The notes beneath the pieces are model-generated. The model made no database searches, was not told the DNA's origin, and saw only the letters and a program-made list of their open reading frames with translations. Positions 45,726 through 64,000 of a stretch of DNA of 64,000 bases are shown one piece after another. A program made the translations under genes and the position numbers. Every line of letters begins with the position of its first letter. Positions within the stretch are counted from its first letter, which is position 1. Source of the stretch: an uncultured Clostridia bacterium (lineage in GTDB: Bacteria; Bacillota; Clostridia; Christensenellales; Borkfalkiaceae); the NCBI GenBank assembly GCA_964479935.1, contig CAYZOF010000002.1:11912-75911 (forward strand), given 5' to 3'.

Positions 45726-46385
45726 ATGATAGAAATTAAAGGTATTACGAAGCAGTTTCAAAACGAAACGGCGATCGATTATAAAGATATAACGTTTGAA
45801 ACAGGGAAATCCTATATGTTGCTCGGTGCGTCGGGATGCGGAAAATCCACGTTATTGAATATGATTGCCGGAATTTTATCTCCGACCAAAGGACAGGTTG
45901 TCATTGACGGCGTCGACATGTCCGGGGCGAGTCAAAAGGCGCGAGATAAGTTCCGTATCGAGAACATCGGCTACATATTTCAAGATTTTAAGCTCATCAA
46001 CGACATGACGGTGACGGATAACATCAATATTTTGCGCTTGGAGGACATAGACACTTCGGACGCGCCGAAACTTTTGGCTTGTTTAGGCATCGAAGAAAAG
46101 AAAAACAGCAAGATCAAACATCTTTCGGGCGGTCAAAAGCAACGCGTCGCTATCGCGCGCGCTCTTGTGAAAAAGCCGCAGATCATTCTCGCGGACGAAC
46201 CGACGGGAAATTTGAACTTCGCCATCGGGGAACAGGTCATTAAGGAATTGATAGAAATTTCTAAAGGCAAAACGTTGATTGCTGTCTCGCATGACGAGCG
46301 TCTTGCCAAGTATTTCGACGAAGTCGTCGATATGAACGAAATGACGGGCGGCAGAAGAGATATCGCGCCCGAGGAGGTGTTGTAA
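45726..46385 (+). CDS. ABC transporter ATP-binding protein (MacB/LolD-like)
   Basis: Walker A GASGCGKSTLLN, LSGGQKQRVAIARAL, ILADEPTGNLN. Confidence 0.9.
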   Translation: MIEIKGITKQFQNETAIDYKDITFETGKSYMLLGASGCGKSTLLNMIAGILSPTKGQVVIDGVDMSGASQKARDKFRIENIGYIFQDFKLINDMTVTDNINILRLEDIDTSDAPKLLACLGIEEKKNSKIKHLSGGQKQRVAIARALVKKPQIILADEPTGNLNFAIGEQVIKELIEISKGKTLIAVSHDERLAKYFDEVVDMNEMTGGRRDIAPEEVL

Positions 46386-47593
46386 TGTTTCGTTTTGCTT
46401 TGAAGAATATGGCAATAAAAATGGTACAAAATATTTTGATTGTGCTGTCTATCGTCCTTTCTGCAGGGATAGCGGTGTTAGCATATAACGTAGCCAATCA
46501 GGTGGAGGAAGGAATAACGAAAAACGCAGGGTATTATTCGGTAATCGTTGGGCCTTCGGGCAGTCAAACGCAACTCGCGATGAATACGATGTATTTCACG
46601 GACGAGCCTGTCGGTACGATTCCCTATTCGGTTGTTACGGATTTACAAAAGGACGGTTCAAGAGTAAAATCGGTCATTCCGTTTGCAATGGCAGACAATT
46701 ATAACGGCTATGGCGTGGTCGGAACGACTTCGGCATTTTTGAACGAAAAAACCGTTGAGAAGGGTACCATGTACGAGGATAACACCACGATGCAGGCGGT
46801 CGTCGGGTATAAAGTGGCGAAATATAACAGCCTTAAAGTCGGCGATGTGATCTATACCAGTCATTCGGCAAACAGTACCGAAACGCACGCAAAGGGAATT
46901 ACTGTCGTCGGTATTTTGGGGGAAAGCCATTCTGCCTACGATAACATCGTATTCACGCAGCTACGTACCCTTTGGGAAATGCACGATCACGGCGAAGATG
47001 CGGAAGAGGGCGATGAGGAACACGATCACGAACACGGCAAAACCGTCTGTGCGGTATTGGTGAATACCACTACGCCTGCGGCGGCGTTGCAACTGGTTAC
47101 CGAATACGACGGAAAAGTGCTCACCGACGATGACGGCGATGCGTTCACCTTACAGGCAATTGAACCGATGGACGTCGTTCGAGGCGTGTTAAACGAAGCC
47201 GACGATACAAAATACATTGTATTTGTGCTTTGCGCGGTTATTTTGCTCATGAATATCATGGTCATTTCGATTATTACGTTGCTCAATATGTATCATTCGG
47301 CGAAGGAAATTTCGCTCATGCGGTTGATCGGTATCAGTATGAAGAAAATCAACCTTTTGTACATTATTCAAAATGGCATCATCGGTTTGGTATCGGCAGG
47401 GTTGGCGTTCGGTTTGTCTAAGGTCTGCTTGCTATTGATGAACAATTACGTGGCGTCTATGGGCGTCGTCTTGAATATGGGCATCGTATATCCTATGGAA
47501 TTCGTGATTTTGTTTGCGGTATTTTTAATAAGCGTCGTTCCCACCGTCATTTGGACGTTCTTTATGTCTAAAAAAGATGGGATAGGCGAGTAA
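46385..47593 (+). CDS. FtsX/MacB-type ABC permease (4 TM) with a His/Asp/Glu-rich insertion in the extracytoplasmic domain
   Basis: TM1, then a ~240-aa external domain, then three C-terminal TM helices (FtsX-like layout). The loop MHDHGEDAEEGDEEHDHEHG is encoded at 46979..47038. Confidence 0.85.
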   Translation: MFRFALKNMAIKMVQNILIVLSIVLSAGIAVLAYNVANQVEEGITKNAGYYSVIVGPSGSQTQLAMNTMYFTDEPVGTIPYSVVTDLQKDGSRVKSVIPFAMADNYNGYGVVGTTSAFLNEKTVEKGTMYEDNTTMQAVVGYKVAKYNSLKVGDVIYTSHSANSTETHAKGITVVGILGESHSAYDNIVFTQLRTLWEMHDHGEDAEEGDEEHDHEHGKTVCAVLVNTTTPAAALQLVTEYDGKVLTDDDGDAFTLQAIEPMDVVRGVLNEADDTKYIVFVLCAVILLMNIMVISIITLLNMYHSAKEISLMRLIGISMKKINLLYIIQNGIIGLVSAGLAFGLSKVCLLLMNNYVASMGVVLNMGIVYPMEFVILFAVFLISVVPTVIWTFFMSKKDGIGE

Positions 47594-47608: not shown

Positions 47609-48637
47609 ATGAAAGGATTTATAGAAAAAGTAAAGGCGTTTTTTGAGAAACATTCGTTTATGAAATGGCTTGCACCGCTCTTGGCGGTGGTTGTGATTGC
47701 TACGTCCGTACTTGTACCGATGGCGGCATGTAAAGACAAGAAACCGAGCAGCGGTGGCGTTACGATAGAAAACGGTATTGCGAAACTGAGTTTCAAATCG
47801 GCGGCAAATTACGAATATTTGAAAACGCTCGATAATACGACGGTTACGATCAGCGGTTATATGGCGAGCAGCTCTCCCGTGGACGGTTCGTTTATGTTTT
47901 TGATGAACTTGCCCTATCAAAGTTGTCCGTTTTGCGTGCCGAATACGTCACAACTCTCCAACACGTTGGAAGTATACCCTAAGAAAGGCGACGCATTCGA
48001 TTATACCACGCAGGCGATCAAAGTCGTAGGGACATTGAAAGTTGCGCCCAATGAAAACAAACCTTTCACGGATAAATACGGGTACGTGTTCAATTACAAG
48101 ATTACGGACGCTGAATATACGATTTTGCGTTCCGAAGACTTGTCCGAAGATCTTGCGCTTTGGTCGAAAATTGCCGATTCGGACGTCATCAACGATATTT
48201 ATACGATGTACGATTACGTGAACTTCACCTGCGCGTGGAATACTTATTTCTATAACTCCTATACGGATGTAGACGGCAACCTTGTACCCGGTTATTATCT
48301 GTATGCTTCCGACGCCGAATATTTGTTGACGACGGACGGAGCGCAGTGGAATTACGGCTATCAAGACGGCTATTTCGATAAAATTATCGCCAAAATTCAA
48401 TCCGTAGACGAAACGGCGTTTCAAGACTTAGTGGAAAATATAGAGAAAGCAAAGGCTCTTGCCGAAAAAGCCGTGAAAGAACTTTTGGACGGCAAATATA
48501 CTTGTCAGAAGCAATACGTGGAGAAATTCGATTGCGAGGACTGGATTTTTACATTGGACAAAGGGGAAGAATTGCAGGCAGAAATGAGCACAATTTACAG
48601 CGAATTTTCCAACTGGCTCGGCAGTTGGGAAATGTAA
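47609..48637 (+). CDS. lipoprotein with an OB-like CxxC domain, co-transcribed with the MacB-type transporter
   Basis: Signal peptide plus lipobox (VPMAAC). TISGYMASSSPVDGSFMFLMNLPYQSCPFCVPN is reminiscent of DUF3299-type ABC-associated proteins (from recall only). Confidence 0.7.
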   Translation: MKGFIEKVKAFFEKHSFMKWLAPLLAVVVIATSVLVPMAACKDKKPSSGGVTIENGIAKLSFKSAANYEYLKTLDNTTVTISGYMASSSPVDGSFMFLMNLPYQSCPFCVPNTSQLSNTLEVYPKKGDAFDYTTQAIKVVGTLKVAPNENKPFTDKYGYVFNYKITDAEYTILRSEDLSEDLALWSKIADSDVINDIYTMYDYVNFTCAWNTYFYNSYTDVDGNLVPGYYLYASDAEYLLTTDGAQWNYGYQDGYFDKIIAKIQSVDETAFQDLVENIEKAKALAEKAVKELLDGKYTCQKQYVEKFDCEDWIFTLDKGEELQAEMSTIYSEFSNWLGSWEM

Positions 48638-52300: not shown

Positions 52301-53737
52301 TTAATATTTTCGGTAATCGTAGTAATAATCGATTCGTGCGTCGGCGAGCAACGGATAATTTGTCAACGAATCGAACACGACTTCGACATAGTCGGTCGGG
52401 TTGTAGTTTTTCTTGCTGGAAATCGTACCTCCGCCCGTGATATTTCCGAATTTTTCTCCCCAACCGCCTTCATAGTTCAAATATTCTTGAAAATCGTTGT
52501 AGTGATTATACGTGTAGAACACGTAAAATTCGCCGAGTTCGTATATGCCGTTATGGTTTAGGTCTTCTTTCCCGTAGACGATTCGCGCCGCACCGCGTGT
52601 AATTTCGTATCCGTCGTTGTAAAGCTCTGCCTTATAGCTCGGGTCGCAATCGGTACCGGTCGTGCCGATATCCAACTCATAATAATGCAAGTCACCTCCG
52701 CAACCGCTGATGTTCGGTAAAATAGGCTCGTACGGGTACTGCGACGTATCACCCGAAAAAGCCGTGTGATTTACCCGTAAGTACTCGCCCCAAATGCTTT
52801 TGGTCGGTTTTGCATTTTTGGACGCCGTATAGTTGACCGGCACGTCCCCGAAAGCGTATATATAAGCCGCTACTTCTTCCAAATCGATGTACGCGCCGCC
52901 TTTGTATACGCGAAACGCTTCCTGCCCGTACGCATCTACGACCGTATACTCTCTTCCGTCCTCGCTCAACAACATGTCGCTGTTCCGCACGTATTTCCCG
53001 TTTACTTTCGGTTGATAAGAGGAAATTGTCGGTGCTTGGTCGGGCGTTTCGAGCGTTCCCGACATAAACCCGTGCAGACTTCGATAATACGCGTCGTCCG
53101 CGTCTTTTGCCACTTCGTAACTATCATAGAACTCCTTGGAGGAAACATCTGCGTAGGGATCTTCGCTCCCGTCGGGAAACAGATCTTCCGAGGAGAGCTC
53201 GTAATCGATTAACTGCGAATTTTTATCGAATTCGATCACGCCTTTGTAATTCTTGATCGAACCTGAAACCCAAATATAATCCCCGACGCCGATCAAATTC
53301 GCGCCTGCACCCGTCAATTGATAGCAATACATGGAACGGCTTTGCGGCTCGTCTACGTCGAAATAGAGGCAAATGCCTTTAGAGGGCGTATATTTGATGT
53401 CGATTTCCGTCACCACGCCGCCGAGCTCGTATTCACCGTCTAACGCCTCGCCGTTTTTCAGCGCGTAGGCATCGTTTACGATTTCTTCGTATTCGTTTTC
53501 TTCGATTTCGGAGCTACTCGAGCTACTCATCTCGGAGCCAACGTCGGGAGTGGAGGTCGAAGACTCGTTTTCAACGCTGTCAGATGCGCTAATTTCGGAC
53601 GAGAAAGATTCCGACGAAGAAATACTCGAGGTGGAGCTATCGCTCGAAGTTTCGCCCGTGGAAACGGTTTCGCATGCCGTAATCGCAAAAATAAGAGCGA
53701 ACGCGCTAAGCATAGTCAATTGTTTTTTAATTTTCAT
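52301..53737 (-). CDS. secreted lipoprotein: Ser-rich linker + OB-fold module + barnase/T1-type ribonuclease domain
   Basis: Lipobox FAITAC. OB-like module MYCYQLTGAGANLIGVGDYIWVSGSIKNYKGVIEF. The RNase domain (aa ~285-420, nt 52478..52885) has barnase-like catalytic contexts HYYELDI (Glu), TRGAARIVYG (Arg) and YTYNHYNDFQ (His). Confidence 0.75.
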   Translation of the reverse strand: MKIKKQLTMLSAFALIFAITACETVSTGETSSDSSTSSISSSESFSSEISASDSVENESSTSTPDVGSEMSSSSSSEIEENEYEEIVNDAYALKNGEALDGEYELGGVVTEIDIKYTPSKGICLYFDVDEPQSRSMYCYQLTGAGANLIGVGDYIWVSGSIKNYKGVIEFDKNSQLIDYELSSEDLFPDGSEDPYADVSSKEFYDSYEVAKDADDAYYRSLHGFMSGTLETPDQAPTISSYQPKVNGKYVRNSDMLLSEDGREYTVVDAYGQEAFRVYKGGAYIDLEEVAAYIYAFGDVPVNYTASKNAKPTKSIWGEYLRVNHTAFSGDTSQYPYEPILPNISGCGGDLHYYELDIGTTGTDCDPSYKAELYNDGYEITRGAARIVYGKEDLNHNGIYELGEFYVFYTYNHYNDFQEYLNYEGGWGEKFGNITGGGTISSKKNYNPTDYVEVVFDSLTNYPLLADARIDYYYDYRKY

Positions 53738-53764
53738 AAATAACCTTCTTCCTTTGTCTATAAT

Positions 53765-53793
53765 AGTATAACAAAAAATGAAGGGGAAGTCAA
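53765..53793 (-). promoter_or_regulatory. separate promoter for the RNase-lipoprotein gene (minus strand)
   Basis: Minus strand: TTGACT (53788..53793) - 17 nt - TATACT (53765..53770). Confidence 0.5.
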
Positions 53794-53798
53794 ATGAA

Positions 53799-53828
53799 AA
53801 GAGCCGCTCCGTAAAAGGAGTGGCTCTT
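53799..53828 (-). terminator. hairpin terminator after the 1200-aa lipoprotein gene (minus strand)
   Basis: On the minus strand: AAGAGCCACTCC-ttttac-GGAGCGGCTCTT (one mismatch) followed by ttcattt. Confidence 0.5.
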
Positions 53829-53846
53829 AAATTCCGAATTATTCGA

Positions 53847-56800
53847 TTATTCGTTCGTTTCGGTTGTCGTTGCGGTTGAGTAGGTTACTTCAATCGAATT
53901 CAAACGAACCTGTGCTTTAAGCTTAGCAATTTCAAATTTATCGACGGAAGCCGTAAACGTCACCGTAACAACTGATCCGTTTAACTCAAAATCATAGTCA
54001 TCGGATTCGGTGATAGAATCTTTTAATTCTGTTGCATAACTACTGTTATTACAATTGAAAACGATTTGCGTCATTCCTTTGCAGTCAATAATAATTTGGC
54101 TTGAGGCATAGCATTTTACAGGATTATAAGCATCGGCAACATCAGTTTTAGAGGCACTCTTGTTGTTTGTAAGGGTTACAGCACCGTAGGTCCACACCTG
54201 CGAATTGCTATCTTGAGATTTACGATTCGTTTTGTCAGCGAACGAAAGGGTTACGGTTTCTTCGTCTGCTTTAGGAGCGGCAGAAACTTTCACGCTAAAC
54301 GTTTTGCTAAACGAAGTTTCGCCAAGCTTAAGCGTAGCGGTAATCGTTACAAACGTCAGTTCTTCGGGCAACGTATAGGTAATCTTACCGTTAGCATTGT
54401 CGACAACCGCGCAATCCTTATCGGTAGCATAGCTGATAGCGACGTCCGTGTAGGTCGTGCCTGCGATAGCGACCGTTTCATCGCCAGCCGCCTTGATTTC
54501 CGTATTTAACGTTAAACTGAAAGATTCAATAACAAGTTTATAGATAGGGGCAATGGTTTCATTTGCGGTGCATTCTATGACAGTAGCGTTTTTTGCCCGT
54601 ACGTCGGTATATTTACCGATAACGGTCAAAAGCTTAACGGTGTCACCAACAACGGGTTTCGTTGCCATACTGTCATAACGAGTATTATTTTCGTCATACA
54701 AACCATAAACATAGAAGATATTGCCGTTTTCGTCTGCGATATAGCAATTACCGTATGTTGTACTTGCCAATTTTACAATCGTACCACTGATATAATATTT
54801 CTCGGTGGTATAGTTATCTTTTGAAAACGTATTAGCCTTTTCGATAGCTTCGGGAATGGTAAGCGTGGTATATTCGGTAGGCGTAACGGGTGTATCCGTA
54901 TTGTCGCCACTTTCCGATCCGCCTTGGTTGCCACTGTCCGTGGTGCTTTCTGCGTAGAAGTTGCAGTGAATGTTTTCGGAAGCTTTTACGGGACTAACCG
55001 ATGTATAGGTACCGTAAGTACCGATTGTATAAGCCGTATCGTTTACAGTCGTACGCAATTCGCCCGTTTCGCTGTCAATCGTGTAGACGGTAGAAGCGGT
55101 GATTTGATATTTAACGTTTACGTATGTATCGCTTGTAACGATATTGACATACGTTTTTTGCTCCATCGTACAGTAGAGGTAGTAACCGCCTTCGGTTTGT
55201 TCCAAATAGAAATCCAAAGCGTCGGCAACGGTATCCGTAGTTGCAAAATAGTAGGTATTTACCATTGCGCCCGTGAGATAATAAGTTTTTCCGGACTGCA
55301 CCATACCGAATTTATAAGCTGTACCTACTACGGGAGCGGTAACAACGCTGTACGTTTTGGTATCGGTGTTGTCGCCCGTGTTACCTTCGTCGCCGCCGGT
55401 CGTATCTCCACCGGTGCTGCCTTCGCCCAAAGTAACTTGGATAGCGGTGATTTTTACTTGACCTTTCTTTTCGTCACCGGTATTGCCTACACCGAATGTA
55501 ACAGAGCTTGCATTTACGGTATAAACTTCATCGGAAGCGATTTGCGTTTCACCGCAAGTAAGGATACCGGTATTCTTTACGGCATAAGTAATTTTCACGC
55601 TACCGATCGAGCCGCTTGCAACGGAAATCGTTAGGGTTGCGGATTCGGTTTGATAAATACGCCAGTCTTCGCCGTTGGTGTAATATTTACCTGTATTCAA
55701 GCTATAATCGCCGACAGCCGTACCGCTAACGGTCAACGTAACGCCTTTGTTGGTGATGGTCGTATAGCTTTTCGAGTCTTCCCAATTATTAGCGTCTGCC
55801 CAATCTGCAATCGTGAAACCTTTCGTGATGTCGAGGTCGGTGGTTTCGCCGCTGTCGCCGCCGGTAGAACCGCCTTCGCCTTCGGTGTAGCTGTCAAGGC
55901 TGCAACCGCTTCCGAATTCGACTGTACCCTTGAAGTTCATGAGCGTACCTGTAACGGTGATGGTGTCGCCGATCTTGATTGCGTCTGCGCCCGTACCTTT
56001 TAAACGATAACATTGGATAGATTTGCCTTCAACGTCGATAGTAACGGTTACGTTGCTGTATTCAGAACTGTAAGGGGTGTTCACGTTCGTGATTTTACCT
56101 GTAAGCGTGTATTCGCCGAGCGTTTCGCCTGCCGCAAGATTGAATGCCGCGTTGACGATCTCGCTTGCGCTTGCATTTGCCGCAGGAGCAACCGTTTTAG
56201 GACCGAGCGTCAAGGTGAACGTTTTCGTGTCGGTCTTCTCGCCGCAAGTAAGGGTAGCCGTAAGGGTAACGGTCGTTTGCGCTTCGGGAATGGTAAGCTT
56301 CAACGCACTGCCGTCTACCTTTGCGCATGCTTCATCGGAAGACGTCCAAGCAATTTTTACGTCGGGATAACGTTCGTCGTATGCGGTGAGCTCTACCGTC
56401 TGGTCGAGGGTATATTTTGCCTGAACGCTCAAAACTTCTTTAATCGCCGCGAATTTCGTTTCCGCAGAAACGGAATCCGCAGAAATCATTTCCGCAAGAC
56501 CGCCGACAAAGGACTTTGATGCATAAGAAAGTAAAGAAGAACTAATAGTATTTTTCGTATCATAAGATCCTAAATAGAGAGTTTTTTCGGTATCGGTAGT
56601 TGAAGATTGATCATTAGTGGAATGCGCCGCGATAGTCGTCGTAATCGTATTATATTCACTATTCCAAACGAATTTGCTTACAGGATTACCGGAAAATTCG
56701 GGGTTATAGGACCAGCTATTCTTTGTCGAGTTCCAAGACTCCACAACGCCGATGTACATTTTCGTATTCGTACCGTCAAAGAAGTACGGATAGAATTCCG

Positions 56801-57449
56801 TCGTGCTGCCTTCCAAATATTCAACGTATACGTCAACGCCTTCCTTGTAGTTTTCGGTTGTAGCGAAATAATAGGTGTTTGCTTTCGCGCCCGTGAAGTA
56901 CATATCCGTTTGGTTATTGCCTTGATAAACATAGAGCTTATATGCCGTTCCTGCTACGGGAGCCGCCGTGATAAGCTTCGGCGTGACATCCGACATAGCC
57001 AAAACTTTACGCGTGAACGTAAGGACAATCGATTCGCCGGCTTCGTTGGTAACGGTTGCCGTCAAGGTATATGTAAGGTCTTCCTTGAGATCTTTTGCAA
57101 CGATAACGGGAATGAGTTCGCTTCCGTCCTCGTCGGTGTATACTTCGCCAAACGTTACCCCTGCGGATACGTTAACGGTCCAAGTGATGGGGTAACCCCA
57201 AACCTTTGCGTCTACCGTGTAGTCTTCCCGACCTTCTTTGTTCAAATTTTGTTCTTTGCTTTTCAAGAACTCTGCTGCTGTTTGCAAGTTTTCGTCTTCC
57301 ACTTCAGTGGCTGAAGAGCTACTGTTTCCGTTGCTATTGCTGACGGAGGGAGTACTGTTGGAGGGGGAGCTGTCGTTGTTGTTTTTACAAGCGCCCGCGC
57401 AAGCCAAAATCGCGATGGTGGCAAGAATGCCGGTTAAGATTTTTTTCAT
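53847..57449 (-). CDS. 1200-aa surface lipoprotein with duplicated module set (Ig-like, two OB-fold-like, two pairs of unknown modules)
   Basis: Signal peptide plus lipobox (ILACAGAC) and an S/N-rich linker. OB modules lie at aa ~428-520 (IQCYRLKGTGADAIKIGDTITVTGTLMNFKGTVEF) and ~858-962. Internal repeats pair aa 156-320 with 697-830, and aa 541-675 with 1063-1190. Confidence 0.8.
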   Translation of the reverse strand: MKKILTGILATIAILACAGACKNNNDSSPSNSTPSVSNSNGNSSSSATEVEDENLQTAAEFLKSKEQNLNKEGREDYTVDAKVWGYPITWTVNVSAGVTFGEVYTDEDGSELIPVIVAKDLKEDLTYTLTATVTNEAGESIVLTFTRKVLAMSDVTPKLITAAPVAGTAYKLYVYQGNNQTDMYFTGAKANTYYFATTENYKEGVDVYVEYLEGSTTEFYPYFFDGTNTKMYIGVVESWNSTKNSWSYNPEFSGNPVSKFVWNSEYNTITTTIAAHSTNDQSSTTDTEKTLYLGSYDTKNTISSSLLSYASKSFVGGLAEMISADSVSAETKFAAIKEVLSVQAKYTLDQTVELTAYDERYPDVKIAWTSSDEACAKVDGSALKLTIPEAQTTVTLTATLTCGEKTDTKTFTLTLGPKTVAPAANASASEIVNAAFNLAAGETLGEYTLTGKITNVNTPYSSEYSNVTVTIDVEGKSIQCYRLKGTGADAIKIGDTITVTGTLMNFKGTVEFGSGCSLDSYTEGEGGSTGGDSGETTDLDITKGFTIADWADANNWEDSKSYTTITNKGVTLTVSGTAVGDYSLNTGKYYTNGEDWRIYQTESATLTISVASGSIGSVKITYAVKNTGILTCGETQIASDEVYTVNASSVTFGVGNTGDEKKGQVKITAIQVTLGEGSTGGDTTGGDEGNTGDNTDTKTYSVVTAPVVGTAYKFGMVQSGKTYYLTGAMVNTYYFATTDTVADALDFYLEQTEGGYYLYCTMEQKTYVNIVTSDTYVNVKYQITASTVYTIDSETGELRTTVNDTAYTIGTYGTYTSVSPVKASENIHCNFYAESTTDSGNQGGSESGDNTDTPVTPTEYTTLTIPEAIEKANTFSKDNYTTEKYYISGTIVKLASTTYGNCYIADENGNIFYVYGLYDENNTRYDSMATKPVVGDTVKLLTVIGKYTDVRAKNATVIECTANETIAPIYKLVIESFSLTLNTEIKAAGDETVAIAGTTYTDVAISYATDKDCAVVDNANGKITYTLPEELTFVTITATLKLGETSFSKTFSVKVSAAPKADEETVTLSFADKTNRKSQDSNSQVWTYGAVTLTNNKSASKTDVADAYNPVKCYASSQIIIDCKGMTQIVFNCNNSSYATELKDSITESDDYDFELNGSVVTVTFTASVDKFEIAKLKAQVRLNSIEVTYSTATTTETNE

Positions 57450-57480: not shown

Positions 57481-58860
57481 TCAATGAATCGTAATTGCGC
57501 CAAGGTAGAATACCTTGATTTGATAACCTTCGTAATAATCGACGAAGCCTTTGTTTACGTCGATTGTTTTGCCTAAAAACTCGTCTTCCGTAACAAGGGT
57601 TTCGTCCGCATGGCGCAACACAGCCGTACGAACGGTAATGGTTTGACCGTCTTCCGATCTACAAGTGAGCGTGATTGCACCTTTGTTGTTACTGGTTTCA
57701 TTCTTCGTAGTATATGCGTCTATAACCGTCAAATTCTTCATGGAAATCGACGTATTCATTGCGAGCGCGGCATAGTCGAACTCAACAGGGGTAATAACCG
57801 TTTCACCCGTTTGGAAATCCAACGTTTCCATATCCACGGCGACTTTGCCGTTGAACGTGCTTGCCGAAGTTTCTTTGTAGGCAATTTCATTGTCTTCGGA
57901 AAGTTTTATAGTGTTGTCAGGATCGTCCGGTTTTATTGCACGATATTTCAAGTCGGACACTTGATAGGTGCCACTTGCTTCATAGTAGGTAACTTTGCCG
58001 ACCATACGAACGCGATTGCCGGGGGCAAGAATATCGAGAAGTTCTTCCTTATAGTTCAAAAAAGCAGAGATACCATAATATAAACCGGTTTCAGCATCGT
58101 AATCTTCGATATAAACGTTCCAACTATTGTACAACGTTACCGTGCCTTCAAAGGTAACTTTTACTTCGAGATATTCTTCGGGATTTGTACGCAATTCTTT
58201 AAGCGTGATAGTTTTTGCGTCGCCTTTGTAGAAATCCGGGTCATCGCCCGACCAAAGGTTCAATTTGTTTGTTTTAGCTTGGCTGAACGCGTTCATACAA
58301 GCCGTACTGTAACGGCAGGTATTCATTTTGTTACCATACGCAAAACCGTTTTGCAGAATTTCCAAGTTCAAATTGCGGTAGTCTGTGCCACCTTGCGGTT
58401 TATACCAAATCCAAACGAGAAATCTGCCGTTTGAGTCGTATTCCCATTCCGTACCGTCCGTTTCCACGATGATAGAGGACGCGCTCTCTAACTTTTCCCT
58501 GGTGAAGTTAGAGGCTTTTTTGCCCCAAGGCTCGATTGCACCTGTCGATTCGGGGGTGTTGATGGCGGTGTAACGCGCTTTCAAAGTGCCGTCCGGGGCA
58601 ATGCTCGTCGGAACGTTGAAATGCGTCGTATCGCCGTCGACGTACAGTTTTACCGTTACTTCCAGTTTTTTCGAGTCGGTCGTCATATCGAGCTTCGTCT
58701 GTTCGACGTAGTCGATAAATTCCGTCGAACTGCTCCCAGAGGAACTGTTTTCCGAAGCACTGTTTTCGGCGGAATTGCCGCCGTTAGGCAGGTCGCACCC
58801 TGCGAACGCGCCGAGCGAGATCGCAGCGAGCAACAATAAGGATAATATTTTCTTTTTCAT
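57481..58860 (-). CDS. lipoprotein with staphylococcal (micrococcal) nuclease domain + C-terminal OB-like/beta domains
   Basis: Lipobox GAFAGC. SNase motifs VDGDTTHF, KARYTAINTPE, GRFLVWIWY, LQNGFAY and NLWS (aa ~65-205). Confidence 0.8.
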   Translation of the reverse strand: MKKKILSLLLLAAISLGAFAGCDLPNGGNSAENSASENSSSGSSSTEFIDYVEQTKLDMTTDSKKLEVTVKLYVDGDTTHFNVPTSIAPDGTLKARYTAINTPESTGAIEPWGKKASNFTREKLESASSIIVETDGTEWEYDSNGRFLVWIWYKPQGGTDYRNLNLEILQNGFAYGNKMNTCRYSTACMNAFSQAKTNKLNLWSGDDPDFYKGDAKTITLKELRTNPEEYLEVKVTFEGTVTLYNSWNVYIEDYDAETGLYYGISAFLNYKEELLDILAPGNRVRMVGKVTYYEASGTYQVSDLKYRAIKPDDPDNTIKLSEDNEIAYKETSASTFNGKVAVDMETLDFQTGETVITPVEFDYAALAMNTSISMKNLTVIDAYTTKNETSNNKGAITLTCRSEDGQTITVRTAVLRHADETLVTEDEFLGKTIDVNKGFVDYYEGYQIKVFYLGAITIH

Positions 58861-58887: not shown

Positions 58888-60393
58888 TTAAAGGTCGTTG
58901 AATTCCAATTCGTCAATGGTGTCGTCAAATGCATTCTTAATAAAGTCAGCCAACGTCATATTGCCAAGATCCGTTTTCGCGAAACAGGTTTGCATCAAAA
59001 GCCCGACTTGTACACGAGCTTCCGAAGAACCTGCGAATGCAGGGGAAATGTAGCAAGCATCTTCTTGTGCAAGTGCTTGTATAACAGCCGTTGCAGTCAA
59101 GTTTTTGTCACCGTCGGCGGATGCAAGCCAATTCTTGTAGAATTCGTTCTGTTGAACGGATTTAATGACGGGCGCATATCCGTTGTTCTGAGAGAATTCT
59201 GCCTGCAATTCAACGCAAGTCGTCAAAAATTTTGCAAACAACCAAGCCGCTGCCTGTTCCTGTTCCGCAGCCGCTTTATCGGTTTTGTTCAATTCCGCTA
59301 GTCTTACCTTGTTGAAAAGTACAAGGGAGGGTCCTTGTGAAATTACTTTCGGTTTGTTAACGTCTACTTGAGGGATCGGTGCTACGCCTACTTCAAAAGG
59401 ATAGACGTCTTGCCCTTCGGAATTTTTAACCTTATCGGGAACTTGATTGGAAGCGCCGCCGGTAGAACCGATACACATAAACATTCTGGTCTTGGATGTA
59501 TCGATATTGGTGAACAACAAGGACGTATAGGAGTTACCGTTGAGGGCTTTCGTTGTTACGTAACCGGATTGATGCCAGTTGGTAAATCTTTCAACGAATG
59601 CGCGAGCTTCCGGGGTGTTGAAAAGGTAGTGGTCGCCCGTTGCGGAGGTGTAAGGGATTCCGGACTGTTCACACATCGTGATGAACCAGTTGGATTCGGA
59701 GTCGTAACCGAGAGGGATGCAGTTGCTTTCCTCGCTTCTGATGGTTTGACACAGGGTTTCCATTTCATCCCAGGTGGTGGGAACGGTGTAACCCTTTGCA
59801 TCGAAATACGTTTTGTTGTAGAACAACACTTCCGAAGATTTTTGGAAAGGAAGGGTGTACATTTTTCCGTCACCGTATACGCGACCTTCTTCCCAGTAGC
59901 TTTCTACGAAATCGTCAAGTTGCGCCTGCGTGTAACCCATCGTCTCCGTCGTACCGTCTGCGTGTTCTACAACGGCATCGCTTGCGATATAGCTATCGAG
60001 CGTGAGGACCATTTTCGACTTATTGTAAAGGGCAACATGGTCGGAATAGCAATATGCCAAACTAGGGGAGTTTTTACCTGCTAATTCCTTACTGATTTGG
60101 CTGCGCAAAGCGTCATAGTCACCGATCATCGTATGCGTGATATGAATGTTAGGATAAAGTCTGTTAAATTCGGGAATATATTCATTCAAAATCGGTTGAA
60201 GCGTGTTCGCACCCATTGTGTGGTAGAACGTAATGTCAACGTCACTGCCGTCATAGGCTACGATAGGGGTGATTTCAACTCCGCTATCGGAAGAGCCACC
60301 GGAGTTGCCGCCGTTATCGCCGCAAGAGGCGAGCGCGCTGAGAGACATTACTGCCGAAAGAAAGGTACACAGAAATTTTTTGGTGTTTTTCAT
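58888..60393 (-). CDS. ABC transporter solute-binding lipoprotein (family-1/CUT1-type)
   Basis: Signal peptide plus lipobox (LSALASCG), about 480 mature aa, adjacent to MalF/G-like permeases. ATG at 60393 (MKNTKKF) is preferred over the ORF-track start at 60453. Confidence 0.8.
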   Translation of the reverse strand: MKNTKKFLCTFLSAVMSLSALASCGDNGGNSGGSSDSGVEITPIVAYDGSDVDITFYHTMGANTLQPILNEYIPEFNRLYPNIHITHTMIGDYDALRSQISKELAGKNSPSLAYCYSDHVALYNKSKMVLTLDSYIASDAVVEHADGTTETMGYTQAQLDDFVESYWEEGRVYGDGKMYTLPFQKSSEVLFYNKTYFDAKGYTVPTTWDEMETLCQTIRSEESNCIPLGYDSESNWFITMCEQSGIPYTSATGDHYLFNTPEARAFVERFTNWHQSGYVTTKALNGNSYTSLLFTNIDTSKTRMFMCIGSTGGASNQVPDKVKNSEGQDVYPFEVGVAPIPQVDVNKPKVISQGPSLVLFNKVRLAELNKTDKAAAEQEQAAAWLFAKFLTTCVELQAEFSQNNGYAPVIKSVQQNEFYKNWLASADGDKNLTATAVIQALAQEDACYISPAFAGSSEARVQVGLLMQTCFAKTDLGNMTLADFIKNAFDDTIDELEFNDL

Positions 60394-60456
60394 GTTGATA
60401 CATCCTTTATATAATATTTTGTTTTTTCGATAAAATTTATAAAATTTATACAAGAG

Positions 60457-61410
60457 TTAGCCCTTAATACCACTTCTGGAAACGCCTTTCATAATATATT
60501 TTCTGAGAAAGACGAATACGAGGAACAACGGGGCGGAAACTATCGCGACAGCCGCCATTTGAACGGGGATGTTTGTTTTTCCCGTATCCACGTCGGTGAA
60601 AGAGAGTGCGCGCAACCCGTTGGTAATCAAACGCATTTCTTCTTCGTTTGCAACCAGTCGAGGCCAGATATAGCTGTTCCATGCGCCCATCATCTTCAAA
60701 ATTGTAATCGAAATTAAGGTGGGCAGGGCAAGGGGAATCATAACTTTCCAGAGATATTTCAAGTCGGTCGTGCCGTCGACTTTTGCCGCCAGATACAGTT
60801 CGTTAGGAATCTGTTCGAAATTCTGTTTCAACAGATAGATATAAAACACGCTGACGAGGAAAGGAACGATCAACGCCTTAAAGGTGTTCATCCATTGGAA
60901 TGTACTGATCGTCTGATAATTGGTGATGGTGAAAAGTTCCCCGGGGATCATCATCGTTGTCAAAAGGAAAGCAAACAGGGCGTTTTTTCCCTTGAATTCC
61001 AATCGGGCAAAGGCGAACGCCGACAACACGGTGATGATAAGGGACAGTATGGTCGAGACGATACCGACGTATACCGTATTTAAGAATAATCTGCCTAAGT
61101 TGCCTGTGGTGAACGCTTGCGAATAGTTCGACCATAAAATCTCTTTCGGGAAGAACGTGGGTTCGGGCAATGAAAACTCTTGCACGCTCTTTACGGAGGA
61201 AATCAACATAAAGTAGAAAGGAAACAAAACGACCAACGCCATAACGCCGAGAAAAGCGTACAAAGCGATTTGCACCAGCACTTTCGTTACTTTTTGTTTT
61301 TTTGATACTTTTTGAATATCCTTTTCTTTCATGACGCTTTCGGCGAGTTCGGTTTTTCCCGTGTCTTCGGAAGGGAGGTCCAAATTTTCATTTTCTTGTA
61401 ATTCTTTCAT
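60457..61410 (-). CDS. ABC transporter permease (MalG/UgpE-like)
   Basis: 6 TM helices and an EAA-type loop LAAKVDGTTDLKYLWKVMIPLALP. Hydrophilic extension of ~45 aa at the N-terminus. Confidence 0.88.
   Translation of the reverse strand: MKELQENENLDLPSEDTGKTELAESVMKEKDIQKVSKKQKVTKVLVQIALYAFLGVMALVVLFPFYFMLISSVKSVQEFSLPEPTFFPKEILWSNYSQAFTTGNLGRLFLNTVYVGIVSTILSLIITVLSAFAFARLEFKGKNALFAFLLTTMMIPGELFTITNYQTISTFQWMNTFKALIVPFLVSVFYIYLLKQNFEQIPNELYLAAKVDGTTDLKYLWKVMIPLALPTLISITILKMMGAWNSYIWPRLVANEEEMRLITNGLRALSFTDVDTGKTNIPVQMAAVAIVSAPLFLVFVFLRKYIMKGVSRSGIKG
61369..61395 (-). repeat. 27-nt near-repeat copy B, encoding ENENLDLPS at the N-terminus of permease 2
   Basis: See copy A; read directly from the sequence. 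Confidence 0.8.
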
Positions 61411-61422
61411 AAAATACCTCCT

Positions 61423-62718
61423 TTAACGCGTTTTTTTCTTTTTACTGACACTCAAATTAATCATGGTTACCACGAAGATAATGGCAAACAGAATCAACGC
61501 CGCCGCACTGGCTACGCCGTCCTGGTCAAGGGACATGCGATCGTATATGAAACCGACCATCGTATTGAGCGAATGTTCCGAACCTGCAGGTCTCATATTC
61601 TCGCCGAAAATGCCGACAATGCTCGAATATTCCTTAAAACCGCCGATAAAACCCGTAATAATAACGTAGGCAAGCATCGGGGCAAGTTGGGGCACGGTAA
61701 TTTTCGTGAATACGCGCCAACGGGGCGTACTGTCGATTTTTGCGGCTTCGTAATATTGCTTGTCGATACTCTGCAAACCGCCGAGCAAAATTAAGATTTT
61801 GAAAGGCAGGGCATTCCAAACGATGTATATGACGAGTACGGTGATGTTTGCGGCATAGCTCGAGCCTGGGTTGACCCAGTTGATAGGTTCTACGCCAAAA
61901 ATGCCGAGGATGTTATTTATAATGCCATAGGAATCGATATTGCCCGTTATAACAGAGCCGACGATATAAAACATTGCATTGAATACCATACCGATTGCAA
62001 TCGAGTTGGTAACGTAGGGCAGGAAGAAAATCGTCTGAAAAAATCTCTGCAACGGCTTAATCGAATTTAAGCAAACGGCGATAAGCAGTGCCAAAATCGT
62101 CGAGATAGGTACGGTAAGCACGCAGAGCAAAATCGTGTTTTTCAAACAGGTCAAGAAGCCTTTGTAGCGGATAACTTTTTCGTAGTTTTTAAAGCCGAAC
62201 TCGAACGTTATTTCATCGTTGAGGACACTCATTCCGCCGTAGTCTTCCAAAAAGGAAATACGTACGGTGTTGATGATGGGCCAAACCGTGAAAATCGCCA
62301 ACAAAACGATGGCAGGAAGGAGGTAAATCCAGCCTTTCCATTTATCGAACTTTATTTTTTGGAGAAATTTACGTCTCTTTGTTCTCCATTCGTCAAGCAA
62401 AACGCGCAGACTTTTTTTACTTCCCGCATCTTCGTCGTCTTCGTTGATGTCGGAAATCGCAAGCTCCGCTTCCGTCGTCGTTTCGTTCACGGAAAGCGCG
62501 GCTACTGCCGCCTGTTCGGATTCGTCGTCTGCCACAGATTTTACGAATATCTCGTTGATTTTATAACTTAAAAGTTTGCCGCAAACAGGACAAACGTATG
62601 CCTTTGTTCCGTCCGTCATTCGCAATTCCGCGCGACACGAAAGACAATGCACGGTTAAGTCTTTCTTTGCGGAAGGATCGTAATCGGAAAGGAGGTTCAA
62701 ATTTTCGTTTTCGCTCAT
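61423..62718 (-). CDS. ABC transporter permease (MalF/UgpA-like) with N-terminal CxxC-x16-CxxC zinc-ribbon extension
   Basis: EAA loop YYEAAKIDSTPRWRVFTKITVP and 6 TM helices. The N-terminal ~125 aa are cytoplasmic, with CLSCRAELRMTDGTKAYVCPVCG followed by an acidic linker. Confidence 0.88.
   Translation of the reverse strand: MSENENLNLLSDYDPSAKKDLTVHCLSCRAELRMTDGTKAYVCPVCGKLLSYKINEIFVKSVADDESEQAAVAALSVNETTTEAELAISDINEDDEDAGSKKSLRVLLDEWRTKRRKFLQKIKFDKWKGWIYLLPAIVLLAIFTVWPIINTVRISFLEDYGGMSVLNDEITFEFGFKNYEKVIRYKGFLTCLKNTILLCVLTVPISTILALLIAVCLNSIKPLQRFFQTIFFLPYVTNSIAIGMVFNAMFYIVGSVITGNIDSYGIINNILGIFGVEPINWVNPGSSYAANITVLVIYIVWNALPFKILILLGGLQSIDKQYYEAAKIDSTPRWRVFTKITVPQLAPMLAYVIITGFIGGFKEYSSIVGIFGENMRPAGSEHSLNTMVGFIYDRMSLDQDGVASAAALILFAIIFVVTMINLSVSKKKKTR
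62686..62712 (-). repeat. 27-nt near-repeat copy A, encoding ENENLNLLS at the N-terminus of permease 1
   Basis: Plus strand ggaaaggaggttcaaattttcgttttc, versus copy B ggaagggaggtccaaattttcattttc (3 mismatches). Confidence 0.8.
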
Positions 62719-62721
62719 ACG

Positions 62722-63822
62722 TTACACCTCGAACGAGATTCTTTCTTCCGTTTCCGCGTCAAAGAGAAACACTTTATGCGGTTTCAATGCGAATGCGATG
62801 GTTGTCGCCGCCGGGGCAATTTTTACGTCTGCGTCTACGATCGAACGGACAATCGGGTTCAAAGACGCCGAGTGACGGGATACGATGCTCACGTCGCGTC
62901 CCATAACTTCTACGTTGGAAAGATTACAAACAAACGCGCCGTCTTCGCAAGGGATAAAGCCTTCCGGACGAATGCCTACGGTTACTGCGCGGTCGTCTAC
63001 GCCGGGTACGTCGAGCACGGCGTTCTCGCCGAGATAGAGCTTACCGCCCTGCACTTTGCCGCTGAATACGTTGATGGGGGGAGTACCGAGGAATTTCGCA
63101 ACGAACAAGTTGGTGGGGGTGTCGTAGATTTCCTGCGGTTTGCCGACTTGTTGCACGACGCCGAGCTTCATCACCACGATCATGTCGGAGATGCTCATCG
63201 CTTCTTCTTGGTCGTGGGTTACGAATACGGTCGTGATGCCCGTTTCTTTTTGGATTCTTCTGATTTCTTCACGAGTTTGCAATCTCAAACGCGCGTCGAG
63301 GTTGGAAAGCGGCTCGTCCAAGAGCAATACGCGCGGCATTTTAACAAGCGCACGCGCGATTGCGACACGCTGTTGCTGTCCGCCGGAAAGCTCGCTCGGC
63401 TTTCTGTCCATAAGCTCGTCGATCTGCACGAGCTTCGCGGCTTCTTGCGCGCGTTGCAACATATCGGCTTTGGAAAGCTTATCTGCGCCTCGTAAGTTTT
63501 GCAGGGGAAAGAGAATGTTCTGCTTTACCGTCATGTGCGGATACAGAGCGTAGTTCTGGAATACGAGTCCGATGCCTCTGTTTTCGGGAGAAAGCTCGGT
63601 GACGTCTTCTTCGCCGAAGAAGATTCTGCCCGAAGTGGGTTGTTGAAGTCCACTGATCATGTACAGGGTCGTACTTTTACCGCATCCGGAAGGACCGAGT
63701 AATCCGACGAGTTTCCCGTCGGGGATGGTAAAGGTGAAGTCATTTACCGCAACCACTTCTTCGCCGCCTTTTTTGTTGCGACTCGGAAAGATTTTGGTCA
63801 AATTTTGCAATTCTACTTTCAT
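62722..63822 (-). CDS. ABC transporter ATP-binding protein (MalK/UgpC/MsmX-like with C-terminal regulatory domain)
   Basis: Walker A GPSGCGKSTTL, LSGGQQQRVAIARAL, LLLDEPLSNLD. 366 aa. GGAGG RBS. Confidence 0.92.
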   Translation of the reverse strand: MKVELQNLTKIFPSRNKKGGEEVVAVNDFTFTIPDGKLVGLLGPSGCGKSTTLYMISGLQQPTSGRIFFGEEDVTELSPENRGIGLVFQNYALYPHMTVKQNILFPLQNLRGADKLSKADMLQRAQEAAKLVQIDELMDRKPSELSGGQQQRVAIARALVKMPRVLLLDEPLSNLDARLRLQTREEIRRIQKETGITTVFVTHDQEEAMSISDMIVVMKLGVVQQVGKPQEIYDTPTNLFVAKFLGTPPINVFSGKVQGGKLYLGENAVLDVPGVDDRAVTVGIRPEGFIPCEDGAFVCNLSNVEVMGRDVSIVSRHSASLNPIVRSIVDADVKIAPAATTIAFALKPHKVFLFDAETEERISFEV

Positions 63823-63881: not shown

Positions 63882-64000
63882 AGGCTTCTGTATTTTGTGC
63901 TTCGAGCGCTGCCTGCTCTTGTTGCCAGGCAATCAAATCCTCTTGCGAGTCGAAAATTTGCTGACTTGCGAAATCCACGACCGCTGTATCCGAGAGCAGG
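63880..64000 (-). CDS. 3' end of an unidentified minus-strand CDS running out of the window
   Basis: Open frame read by hand from the window edge to TAA (plus-strand tta at 63880..63882). Its C-terminus is ...AWQQEQAALEAQNTEA. Too short to name. Confidence 0.35.
   Translation of the reverse strand, partial: LLSDTAVVDFASQQIFDSQEDLIAWQQEQAALEAQNTEA

Follow-up and report, generated by a model that had tools for sequence, protein, structure and literature searches.

The window analysed here is a 64,000-nt stretch of DNA from an uncultured Clostridia bacterium (contig CAYZOF010000002.1, positions 11,912 to 75,911), and on its minus strand, at 53847..57449, it carries a gene for a 1200-amino-acid (aa) modular lipoprotein, termed the scaffold below. 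The gene lies in a cluster with genes for secreted nucleases and an ATP-binding cassette (ABC) importer, and its product is probably a non-catalytic protein that captures the substrate of a Gram-positive locus for nucleic-acid scavenging. The open reading frame (ORF), lipobox and S/N-rich tether, which a previous sequence-only reading of the window had described, were confirmed by the ORF list and by direct reading of the sequence. The gene and its parts are as follows, where Ig denotes immunoglobulin-like modules and HMM a hidden Markov model.

53847..57449, minus strand: scaffold gene, 1200-aa modular lipoprotein (ORF list, ATG start)
57387..57449, minus strand: signal peptide and lipobox, aa 1-21, Cys17 or Cys21 (read from sequence)
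57300..57386, minus strand: S/N-rich low-complexity tether, aa 22-50 (sequence)
57003..57299, minus strand: Ig1, N-terminal aBig_2-like Ig module, aa 51-149 (module HMM)
56490..56984, minus strand: R, predicted divergent beta-trefoil module, aa 156-320 (AlphaFold model and Foldseek)
56196..56465, minus strand: Ig2, aBig_2 module, aa 329-418 (Pfam PF20578)
55890..56168, minus strand: OB, OB-fold module of type A, aa 428-520 (PF01336, sub-threshold)
55830..55889, minus strand: acidic G/S/T/D linker 1, aa 521-540 (sequence)
55425..55829, minus strand: S, predicted jelly-roll beta-sandwich module, aa 541-675 (AlphaFold model)
55356..55424, minus strand: acidic G/S/T/D linker 2, aa 676-698 (sequence)
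54960..55355, minus strand: R', second predicted beta-trefoil module, other subtype, aa 699-830 (R profile)
54870..54959, minus strand: acidic G/S/T/D linker 3, aa 831-860 (sequence)
54570..54869, minus strand: OB', OB-fold module of type B, aa 861-960 (OB profile)
54279..54548, minus strand: Ig3, aBig_2 module, aa 968-1057 (Ig2 profile)
53880..54263, minus strand: S', C-terminal predicted jelly-roll module, second subtype, aa 1063-1190 (hhalign)

At the N-terminus of the scaffold, MKKILTGILATIAILACAGAC, a basic start precedes a hydrophobic core, with C17 and C21 as the possible lipobox cysteines; a tether of about 30 S/N-rich residues, CKNNNDSSPSNSTPSVSNSNGNSSSSATEV, follows. Lipoproteins, i.e., substrates of signal peptidase II, were recognised by a basic N-terminus, a hydrophobic core and the pattern [LVI][ASTVI][GAS]C within approximately 35 residues, and the scaffold shows all three, with the lipobox region reading MKKILTGILATIAILAC(17)AGAC(21). 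A lipobox-like motif was present in the first 45 aa of 232 of the 261 members of the scaffold family, and the protein is predicted to be lipid-anchored via its N-terminal cysteine on the outer face of the membrane. Behind the tether, HMMs, one for each module proposed before and refined by iteration over the 120 best homologues, recovered the proposed order, Ig1-R-Ig2-OB-S-R'-OB'-Ig3-S', with boundaries within a few residues of those given before; the G/S/T/D spacers are as they had been quoted, and a third one was found at aa 831-860. The aBig_2 family PF20578 exceeds its Pfam gathering threshold in two stretches (47.5 bits against a cutoff of 27, the best at aa 351-415), while Ig1 is detected only weakly by the Ig2 profile (6e-6) and belongs to a more distant subtype than Ig2 and Ig3. 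The scaffold is a beads-on-a-string protein in which flexible acidic linkers join three Ig, two OB, two R and two S modules, nine beta-rich units in all. It contains no detectable catalytic domain, since Pfam gives only aBig_2 and the sub-threshold PF01336, and since searches of NCBIfam and of PDB sequences revealed no catalytic family; the whole protein compared with PDB sequences gave nothing meaningful. These searches agree with the earlier statement that the protein lacks a recognisable catalytic domain, and all nine modules have binding-type folds.

It had been proposed that the scaffold is built from a duplicated module set, and the kinship of the paired modules is borne out, although the two halves prove to be a mosaic. 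R and R' share 39% identity over 79 aa (BLASTP E 3e-13), and the R profile finds R' at E 1.4e-37; Ig2 and Ig3 share 39% identity over 76 aa (BLASTP E 1e-11), and the Ig2 profile finds Ig3 at 5e-22. The other two pairs are related at the level of profiles: OB and OB' gave no pairwise BLASTP match, yet one OB profile detects both of them (3e-38 for OB and 4e-13 for OB', range 3.8e-13 to 4.6e-19), and S and S', which align pairwise over only 12 aa, gave a probability of 94.7% and E 5.7e-8 over 116 columns in the profile-profile comparison with hhalign. The joint S/S' alignment contains a common R-x-Y motif (R597 and Y599 in S) and a C-terminal Q-V-R...I-x-V motif. A self-BLAST of the whole protein returned the identity match only. 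As judged from these comparisons, all four module pairs appear homologous, OB/OB' and S/S' at the profile level only. However, modules of other proteins come closer to each module (50-73% identity, 90-166 bits) than does its partner within the scaffold, for which identity does not exceed 39% (50 bits or less); R' is 50-57% identical to R modules of other proteins and OB' is 54-59% identical to OB modules elsewhere. At the DNA level only patches of 26-43 nt with 77-85% identity are shared between paired modules. A recent tandem duplication was therefore rejected, as the modules are closer to those of other proteins and only short patches of DNA are alike. Between S and the terminal S' the closest relatives have nothing, R, R-R or R-OB-Ig (P0027, P0012 and P0010), and since their content varies in this way, the scaffold is regarded, on sequence grounds, as a mosaic of old module subtypes that is "duplicated" only in the sense of ancient paralogy.

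The R and S modules had been suspected to be new domain families, and neither of them matches any Pfam family: a scan of 39 R and 47 S sequences gave scattered noise and no consistent family. The AlphaFold2 model of R, calculated with the family alignment, has a predicted local distance difference test score (pLDDT) of 93.2, a predicted template modelling score (pTM) of 0.87 and 12 strands. Its top Foldseek matches are all beta-trefoils, i.e., Kunitz STI, the receptor-binding subdomain of NTNHA/BoNT, RyR/MIR and the lectin CCL2; these matches are weak (probability up to 0.97, E at least 0.03, template modelling (TM) score 0.45-0.51) and speak at the level of fold only, while the R profile compared with PDB sequences gave nothing meaningful. 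R is thus modelled as a divergent beta-trefoil. Its identity as a ricin-B/CBM13 lectin was considered and rejected, since neither R nor R' contains a QxW motif and none of the 39 R sequences has a ricin-type (Ricin_B_lectin) Pfam match. The corresponding model of S (pLDDT 92.2, pTM 0.86) points to a jelly-roll beta-sandwich, with weak Foldseek matches to the carbohydrate-binding module (CBM) families CBM29/36/35/22/86 and to APC10 (E at least 0.029, TM score 0.29-0.43). Membership of S in a CBM family was rejected as well, because the best Foldseek E value is 0.029 and the shared feature is a generic beta-sandwich; in the Pfam scan CBM65 appeared at noise level in 3 of the 47 S sequences. R and S are sequence families absent from Pfam that stand on known folds, and R is a large one: a search of 1.84 billion representatives gave 2,082 clusters (50% identity) with E<=1e-3.

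The OB module of the window scores 21.3 bits (E 2.6e-4) against PF01336, whose gathering threshold is 27, and a sub-threshold match to this family was obtained for 11 of 29 OB modules of the family, with no rival non-OB family recurring. Arrays of scaffold-type OB modules in the protein P0002 reach 1e-29 against PF01336. The best PDB matches of the OB profile, all of them weak, are RPA2 (E 0.006), STN1, a phage SSB and YhaM. The neighbouring RNase-like lipoprotein described below has an OB that matches the scaffold OB with 39% identity (E 1e-15).

Altogether 404 homologues of the scaffold were found with E<=1e-3, and those that are annotated are hypothetical proteins of metagenome-assembled genomes (MAGs) of Clostridia, Oscillospiraceae or Lachnospiraceae; the nearest genome match is an uncultured Clostridia MAG with 71% identity. 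Of 120 homologues, 116 are matched by the Ig1 HMM, in almost all cases at the first module position, and behind the lipobox, tether and Ig1 the OB, R, Ig2 and S modules follow in freely varying numbers, e.g., Ig1 with thirteen OB, Ig1 with four OB, six R, one OB and S', or Ig1-R-Ig2-OB-OB-S'. In the literature no description of the Clostridia cluster or of the scaffold family was found.

The scaffold gene is accompanied by the following genes.

57481..58860, minus strand: SNase (thermonuclease) lipoprotein with OB-like C-terminal modules (PF00565, 52.4 bits)
58888..63822, minus strand: CUT1-type ABC importer, i.e., lipoprotein solute-binding protein, two permeases and ATPase (SBP_bac_8/SBP_bac_1)
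52301..53737, minus strand: downstream lipoprotein with OB and a probable barnase-like RNase domain (OB profile, 1.8e-25)

Between 57481 and 63822 all genes lie on the minus strand with gaps of 3-31 nt as called. The upstream neighbour, which had been taken for a DNase, is a bona fide SNase lipoprotein (PF00565 52.4 bits against a cutoff of 21, with PF13742 sub-threshold). The PDB relatives of the solute-binding protein are sugar and sn-glycerol-3-phosphate binders, mostly sugar binders, and because the latter kind is among them, a phosphorylated ligand of the importer is plausible. As to the gene models, the signal peptide and lipobox of the solute-binding protein (58888-60453, minus), MKNTKKFLCTFLSAVMSLSALASC, begin at an ATG located 20 codons downstream of the TTG, so that the listed TTG start is probably too far upstream. 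The first ABC permease (61423-62718, minus) has 431 aa, compared with 311-364 aa in eight related loci, and carries an N-terminal extension of approximately 130 aa with a CxxC...CxxC zinc-ribbon-like element (HCLSCRAEL...YVCPVCGKLL) before the membrane domain.

The same arrangement was found in the eight related loci (L001-L004, L006 and L008-L010), which were picked for very different scaffold architectures and show up to approximately 70% sequence divergence. All eight contain, in this order, the RDD, ABC ATPase, permease, permease, binding protein, SNase and scaffold genes, and in each of them the SNase orthologue lies directly upstream of the scaffold. The RDD-family membrane protein (approximately 250-270 aa) is the first gene of the cluster in 8 of 8 loci, and its counterpart in the window is expected beyond position 64000, past the window end. 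Orthologues of the downstream lipoprotein are present in L001 and L002, where they are 52-61% identical; L009 and L010 have an unannotated gene of 397-475 aa in the same slot, the identity comparison having covered L001 and L002. Genes of nucleotide and nucleoside catabolism occupy the flanks of 6-7 of the 8 loci: convergent SurE with one or two DHH/DHHA1 (NrnA-like) genes in 6 of 8, DeoC and PNP nearby in 5 of 8 (on the upstream side and divergent in L001, L002, L003 and L010, on the downstream side in L006), and in some of them also phosphopentomutase, cytidine deaminase, thymidine kinase, HD phosphohydrolase and 5'-nucleotidases. Glycoside hydrolases are absent from the inside of all eight conserved clusters; such genes are confined to the outer flanks of three loci (L001, L002 and L009). 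The gene set around the scaffold is the signature of a nucleic-acid scavenging locus.

The downstream neighbour belongs to a large family with 2,791 matches at E<=1e-5, all of them "hypothetical" and with no precomputed Pfam assignment. It has an OB at its N-terminus, and its probable barnase-like domain, which is divergent and contains two insertions, is separated from this OB by an unassigned middle region (approximately aa 180-275). The earlier claim that it is an RNase is supported in part. PF00545 is the only Pfam match in 3 of 3 orthologues, but it stays below threshold (17.9 bits against 24). When the family profile was compared by hhalign with barnase, binase and RNase Sa, an end-to-end alignment was obtained with E 0.0026, for a single comparison, and a probability of only 11.6%; in this low-probability alignment, the family-invariant E354/R381/R385/H412 coincide with E73/R83/R87/H102 of barnase. 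BLASTP against barnase and two profile searches of PDB sequences, on the other hand, gave no match. The neighbour is probably a divergent barnase-like RNase. Promoter and terminator scans performed no better on the window than on shuffled sequence; the best promoter-like match of the minus strand (53793-53765, TTGACT-17-TATACT with extended TG) falls in the 109 nt (53738-53846, minus) that separate the scaffold from the RNase-like gene, which may have a promoter of its own.

The modules of the scaffold also occur fused to enzymes. Seven proteins (P0016, P0038, P0340, P0359, P0290, P0270 and P0256) combine Endonuclease I (PF04231) with R and/or S. Directly downstream of the scaffold in L006 (16276-18564) a 762-aa Metallophos/5'-nucleotidase carries an R module at aa 113-243 (E 2e-45), so that R is also an appendage of nucleotide-processing enzymes. 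For S and S' the profile search of a 5.8-billion-protein set returned matches of 255 aa or less, many of them fragments, and gives contexts and not full architectures; in such contexts the S' subtype is fused to DUF5689, OB, dockerin and BACON. On a Bacteroidota-like contig (L011, 372-1010) a DUF5689 (DdbD-like) C-terminus is followed by a PT linker and an S' module, and this gene stands immediately upstream of Endonuclease_NS, EEP nuclease and CarboxypepD_reg (TonB-receptor-like) genes; it looks like a locus of the ddb DNA-utilisation type whose lid protein acquired S'. No glycoside hydrolase was found in the 14 multi-domain R proteins scanned nor in any sampled fusion partner of R or S, and the recurring catalytic partners of both modules are, by their domain assignments, enzymes acting on nucleic acids.

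The scaffold most likely holds extracellular DNA or RNA at the cell surface to be digested and taken up, because it is encoded in a widely conserved cluster of secreted nucleases and an ABC importer. That a non-catalytic scaffold sits between a DNase and an RNase gene, as had been stated before, held through all the tests that were run, and the order of importer, SNase and scaffold was kept in 8 of 8 related loci. In the mechanism proposed here, the lipid-anchored chain would reach through or over the cell wall, and its OB modules, probably together with R and S, would bind extracellular DNA or RNA multivalently and with avidity, the OB modules by base stacking. The captured polymer would be held beside the two membrane-anchored nucleases, which would cut it to 3'-nucleotides or short oligonucleotides, and the solute-binding lipoprotein would pick up these products and pass them to the ABC importer. 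The catabolism might be finished in the cytoplasm by SurE, NrnA-like DHH phosphoesterases, nucleoside phosphorylase (PNP), phosphopentomutase (DeoB) and deoxyribose-phosphate aldolase (DeoC), whose genes lie beside the related loci. A more far-reaching version is offered tentatively, and we would sooner doubt than assert it: R and S may be the first dedicated extracellular nucleic-acid-binding modules, a nucleic-acid counterpart of CBMs that is shuffled together with OB onto nucleases, nucleotidases and scaffolds, and the cluster (RDD, ABC importer, SNase and scaffold, with or without the RNase) may be a widespread Gram-positive utilisation locus whose CUT1 importer takes up 3'-nucleotides or short oligonucleotides and not sugars.

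Several observations weigh against nucleic-acid capture. Ligand binding by the scaffold is something that we infer from sequence context. All of its modules are acidic, with isoelectric points of 4.3-5.0 (family medians 4.3-4.9), which one would not usually expect of a protein that binds polyanions; taken as a whole, the nucleases encoded with it are just as acidic. For single modules the Pfam matches of OB remain below threshold, the fold neighbours of R and S in Foldseek are, weakly, lectins, protease inhibitors and carbohydrate-binding modules, and S' also appears with dockerin, with Fn3_assoc/CHB_HEX_C and in a fimbria-like Bacteroidota locus that has no obvious link to nucleic acids. The importer belongs to the carbohydrate/glycerol-phosphate class (CUT1), and the RNase assignment of the downstream neighbour is not statistically secure.

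One may ask whether such features rather describe a glycan-binding adhesin or capture protein, in which R and S are of lectin or CBM type and OB binds oligosaccharide, so that the scaffold supplies the ABC importer with polysaccharide from host, diet or matrix, or attaches the cell to a matrix in which DNA happens to be present. The neighbours of R include CCL2 and the NTNHA/BoNT receptor-binding domains, those of S include fucose-binding modules besides the CBM families listed above, the modules are acidic and rich in aromatic residues as in many CBMs, the PDB relatives of the binding protein are mostly sugar binders, and the association of S' with dockerin and CHB_HEX_C/Fn3_assoc points the same way. 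Nevertheless, these structural matches are all weak (E at least 0.03, TM score at most 0.51), R lacks QxW, and no lectin or CBM family of Pfam is consistent across the 39 R or 47 S sequences. An assignment of R, S or OB to lectin, CBM or adhesin families with no nucleic-acid link, which would have spoken against the earlier proposal, was not obtained, as the fold matches are weak and fusions to nuclease, nucleotidase and DUF5689 exist. It is nucleases and a nucleotidase that recur as catalytic fusion partners, glycoside hydrolases are missing from these partners and from the inside of the eight clusters, being restricted to the three outer flanks, and the flanking catabolic genes are those of nucleotides and nucleosides. 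Glycan capture is accordingly considered unlikely.

About equally improbable is a scaffold that serves protein-protein contacts or mere length, i.e., a wall-spanning stalk that organises SNase, RNase and binding protein in the way of a scaffoldin without cohesins. The constant N-terminal Ig1 and the Ig2 spacers look structural, all partners are lipoproteins, and module number and order vary freely among orthologous loci, as if length or valency outweighed precise chemistry; yet in other proteins OB, R and S themselves form direct fusions with nucleases and nucleotidases, which is a pattern of substrate binding and not of docking, and the locus showed no pair of the cohesin or dockerin kind. 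A DNA receptor for natural transformation, or for attachment to extracellular-DNA biofilms in place of feeding, would fit the faint match of some OB modules to the N-terminal OB family of ComEC (PF13567), but we give it very little credence: neither the window part of the locus nor any of the eight related loci showed com genes (ComEA, ComEC, pilins), for which reason a transformation receptor was set aside, and the scaffold is paired with non-specific nucleases, a small-solute ABC importer and nucleotide/nucleoside catabolism in the flanks.

Capture of nucleic acids for feeding remains the favoured reading, and it has counterparts among known systems. In the utilisation of polysaccharides, SusE/SusF and CBM-bearing scaffoldins serve as capture proteins. 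The scaffold resembles them as a lipid-anchored, non-catalytic, multivalent and multi-module protein whose module number varies and whose gene lies beside those of depolymerases and an importer; its substrate, however, would be nucleic acid and not glycan, there is no sequence relation, and R and S are only weakly CBM- or lectin-like. OB folds are also known from extracellular nucleases, and the nuclease YhcR of Bacillus subtilis carries one. Xds of Vibrio cholerae is an extracellular nuclease composed of LTD, OB and EEP (PMC6746945). As in both of these enzymes, a PF01336-type OB is placed outside the cell beside a nuclease, the scaffold OB type being fused to the RNase-like neighbour and weaker OB-like modules being present in the SNase; whereas their OB is an appendage of the catalytic polypeptide, here OB, R and S form a separate non-catalytic protein.

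In Mycoplasma, an operon of an SNase lipoprotein, the P80 binding lipoprotein and a sugar-type ABC transporter (MAG_5040 / mhp379) was proposed to import nucleic-acid precursors (PMC3585158). The likeness to it is one of gene arrangement: in the window, too, a membrane-anchored SNase lipoprotein adjoins a solute-binding lipoprotein and sugar-class ABC genes on one strand, in a host with one membrane. The Clostridia locus adds the RDD protein, the RNase-like lipoprotein and the scaffold, and no large non-catalytic multi-module scaffold is described in the Mycoplasma operon. A functional parallel is found in gut Bacteroidales, where ddbABCDEF is a DNA-utilisation locus and DdbD (DUF5689) is its predicted DNA-binding lid (Sharan et al., PNAS 2025, PMC12478041). 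Like DdbD, the scaffold is a surface lipoprotein that lacks a catalytic domain and is built on OB/HIN-like folds; the genes of both have secreted lipoprotein nucleases and an importer for neighbours, in an arrangement like that of polysaccharide-utilisation loci, and an S' module of the scaffold's type is joined to a DUF5689 protein in a locus of this kind (L011). In contrast to ddb, the Clostridia system works with one membrane and CUT1-type ABC import; the scaffold is 3-5 times larger than DdbD, is multivalent, adds beta-trefoil and jelly-roll modules and has no detectable whole-protein sequence relation to it. Membership of the Ddb system was rejected, since the window locus and the eight related loci showed neither a DdbC-type TonB-dependent transporter nor DUF5689, and the resemblance is functional. 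By analogy, the scaffold is best read as a one-membrane functional counterpart of SusE/F-type proteins and DdbD.

A few further observations concern the rest of the window. The GC skew is about +0.15 up to approximately 52 kb and near zero beyond, and this change coincides with the switch from plus-strand genes (dcw cluster, ftsK, recA and RNase Y) to the minus-strand nuclease/importer cluster. Shortly before the strand switch, at approximately 52 kb, lie upp and a cytidylate-kinase-like gene. The plus-strand ORF at 47609-48637, which follows a pair of an ABC ATPase and an FtsX/MacB-like permease (45726-47593), encodes a lipoprotein-like product of 342 aa with no Pfam match and a conserved-looking CPFC motif.

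To our knowledge, feeding on extracellular DNA or RNA by gut and environmental Firmicutes is largely undescribed, and we know of no gut nucleic-acid feeding system dissected so far other than the Bacteroidales ddb locus reported in 2025. The scaffold points to a large unannotated family of Clostridia that is tied to a strictly conserved nuclease-plus-importer cluster. This locus provides a candidate capture protein and, with R and S, two families outside Pfam whose modules may be nucleic-acid binders, and the real substrate of its "sugar-type" ABC importer may be nucleotides or oligonucleotides. If this is true, new nucleic-acid-binding modules would become available for annotation and biotechnology, and the concept of a polymer-utilisation locus would extend to nucleic acids in Gram-positive bacteria.

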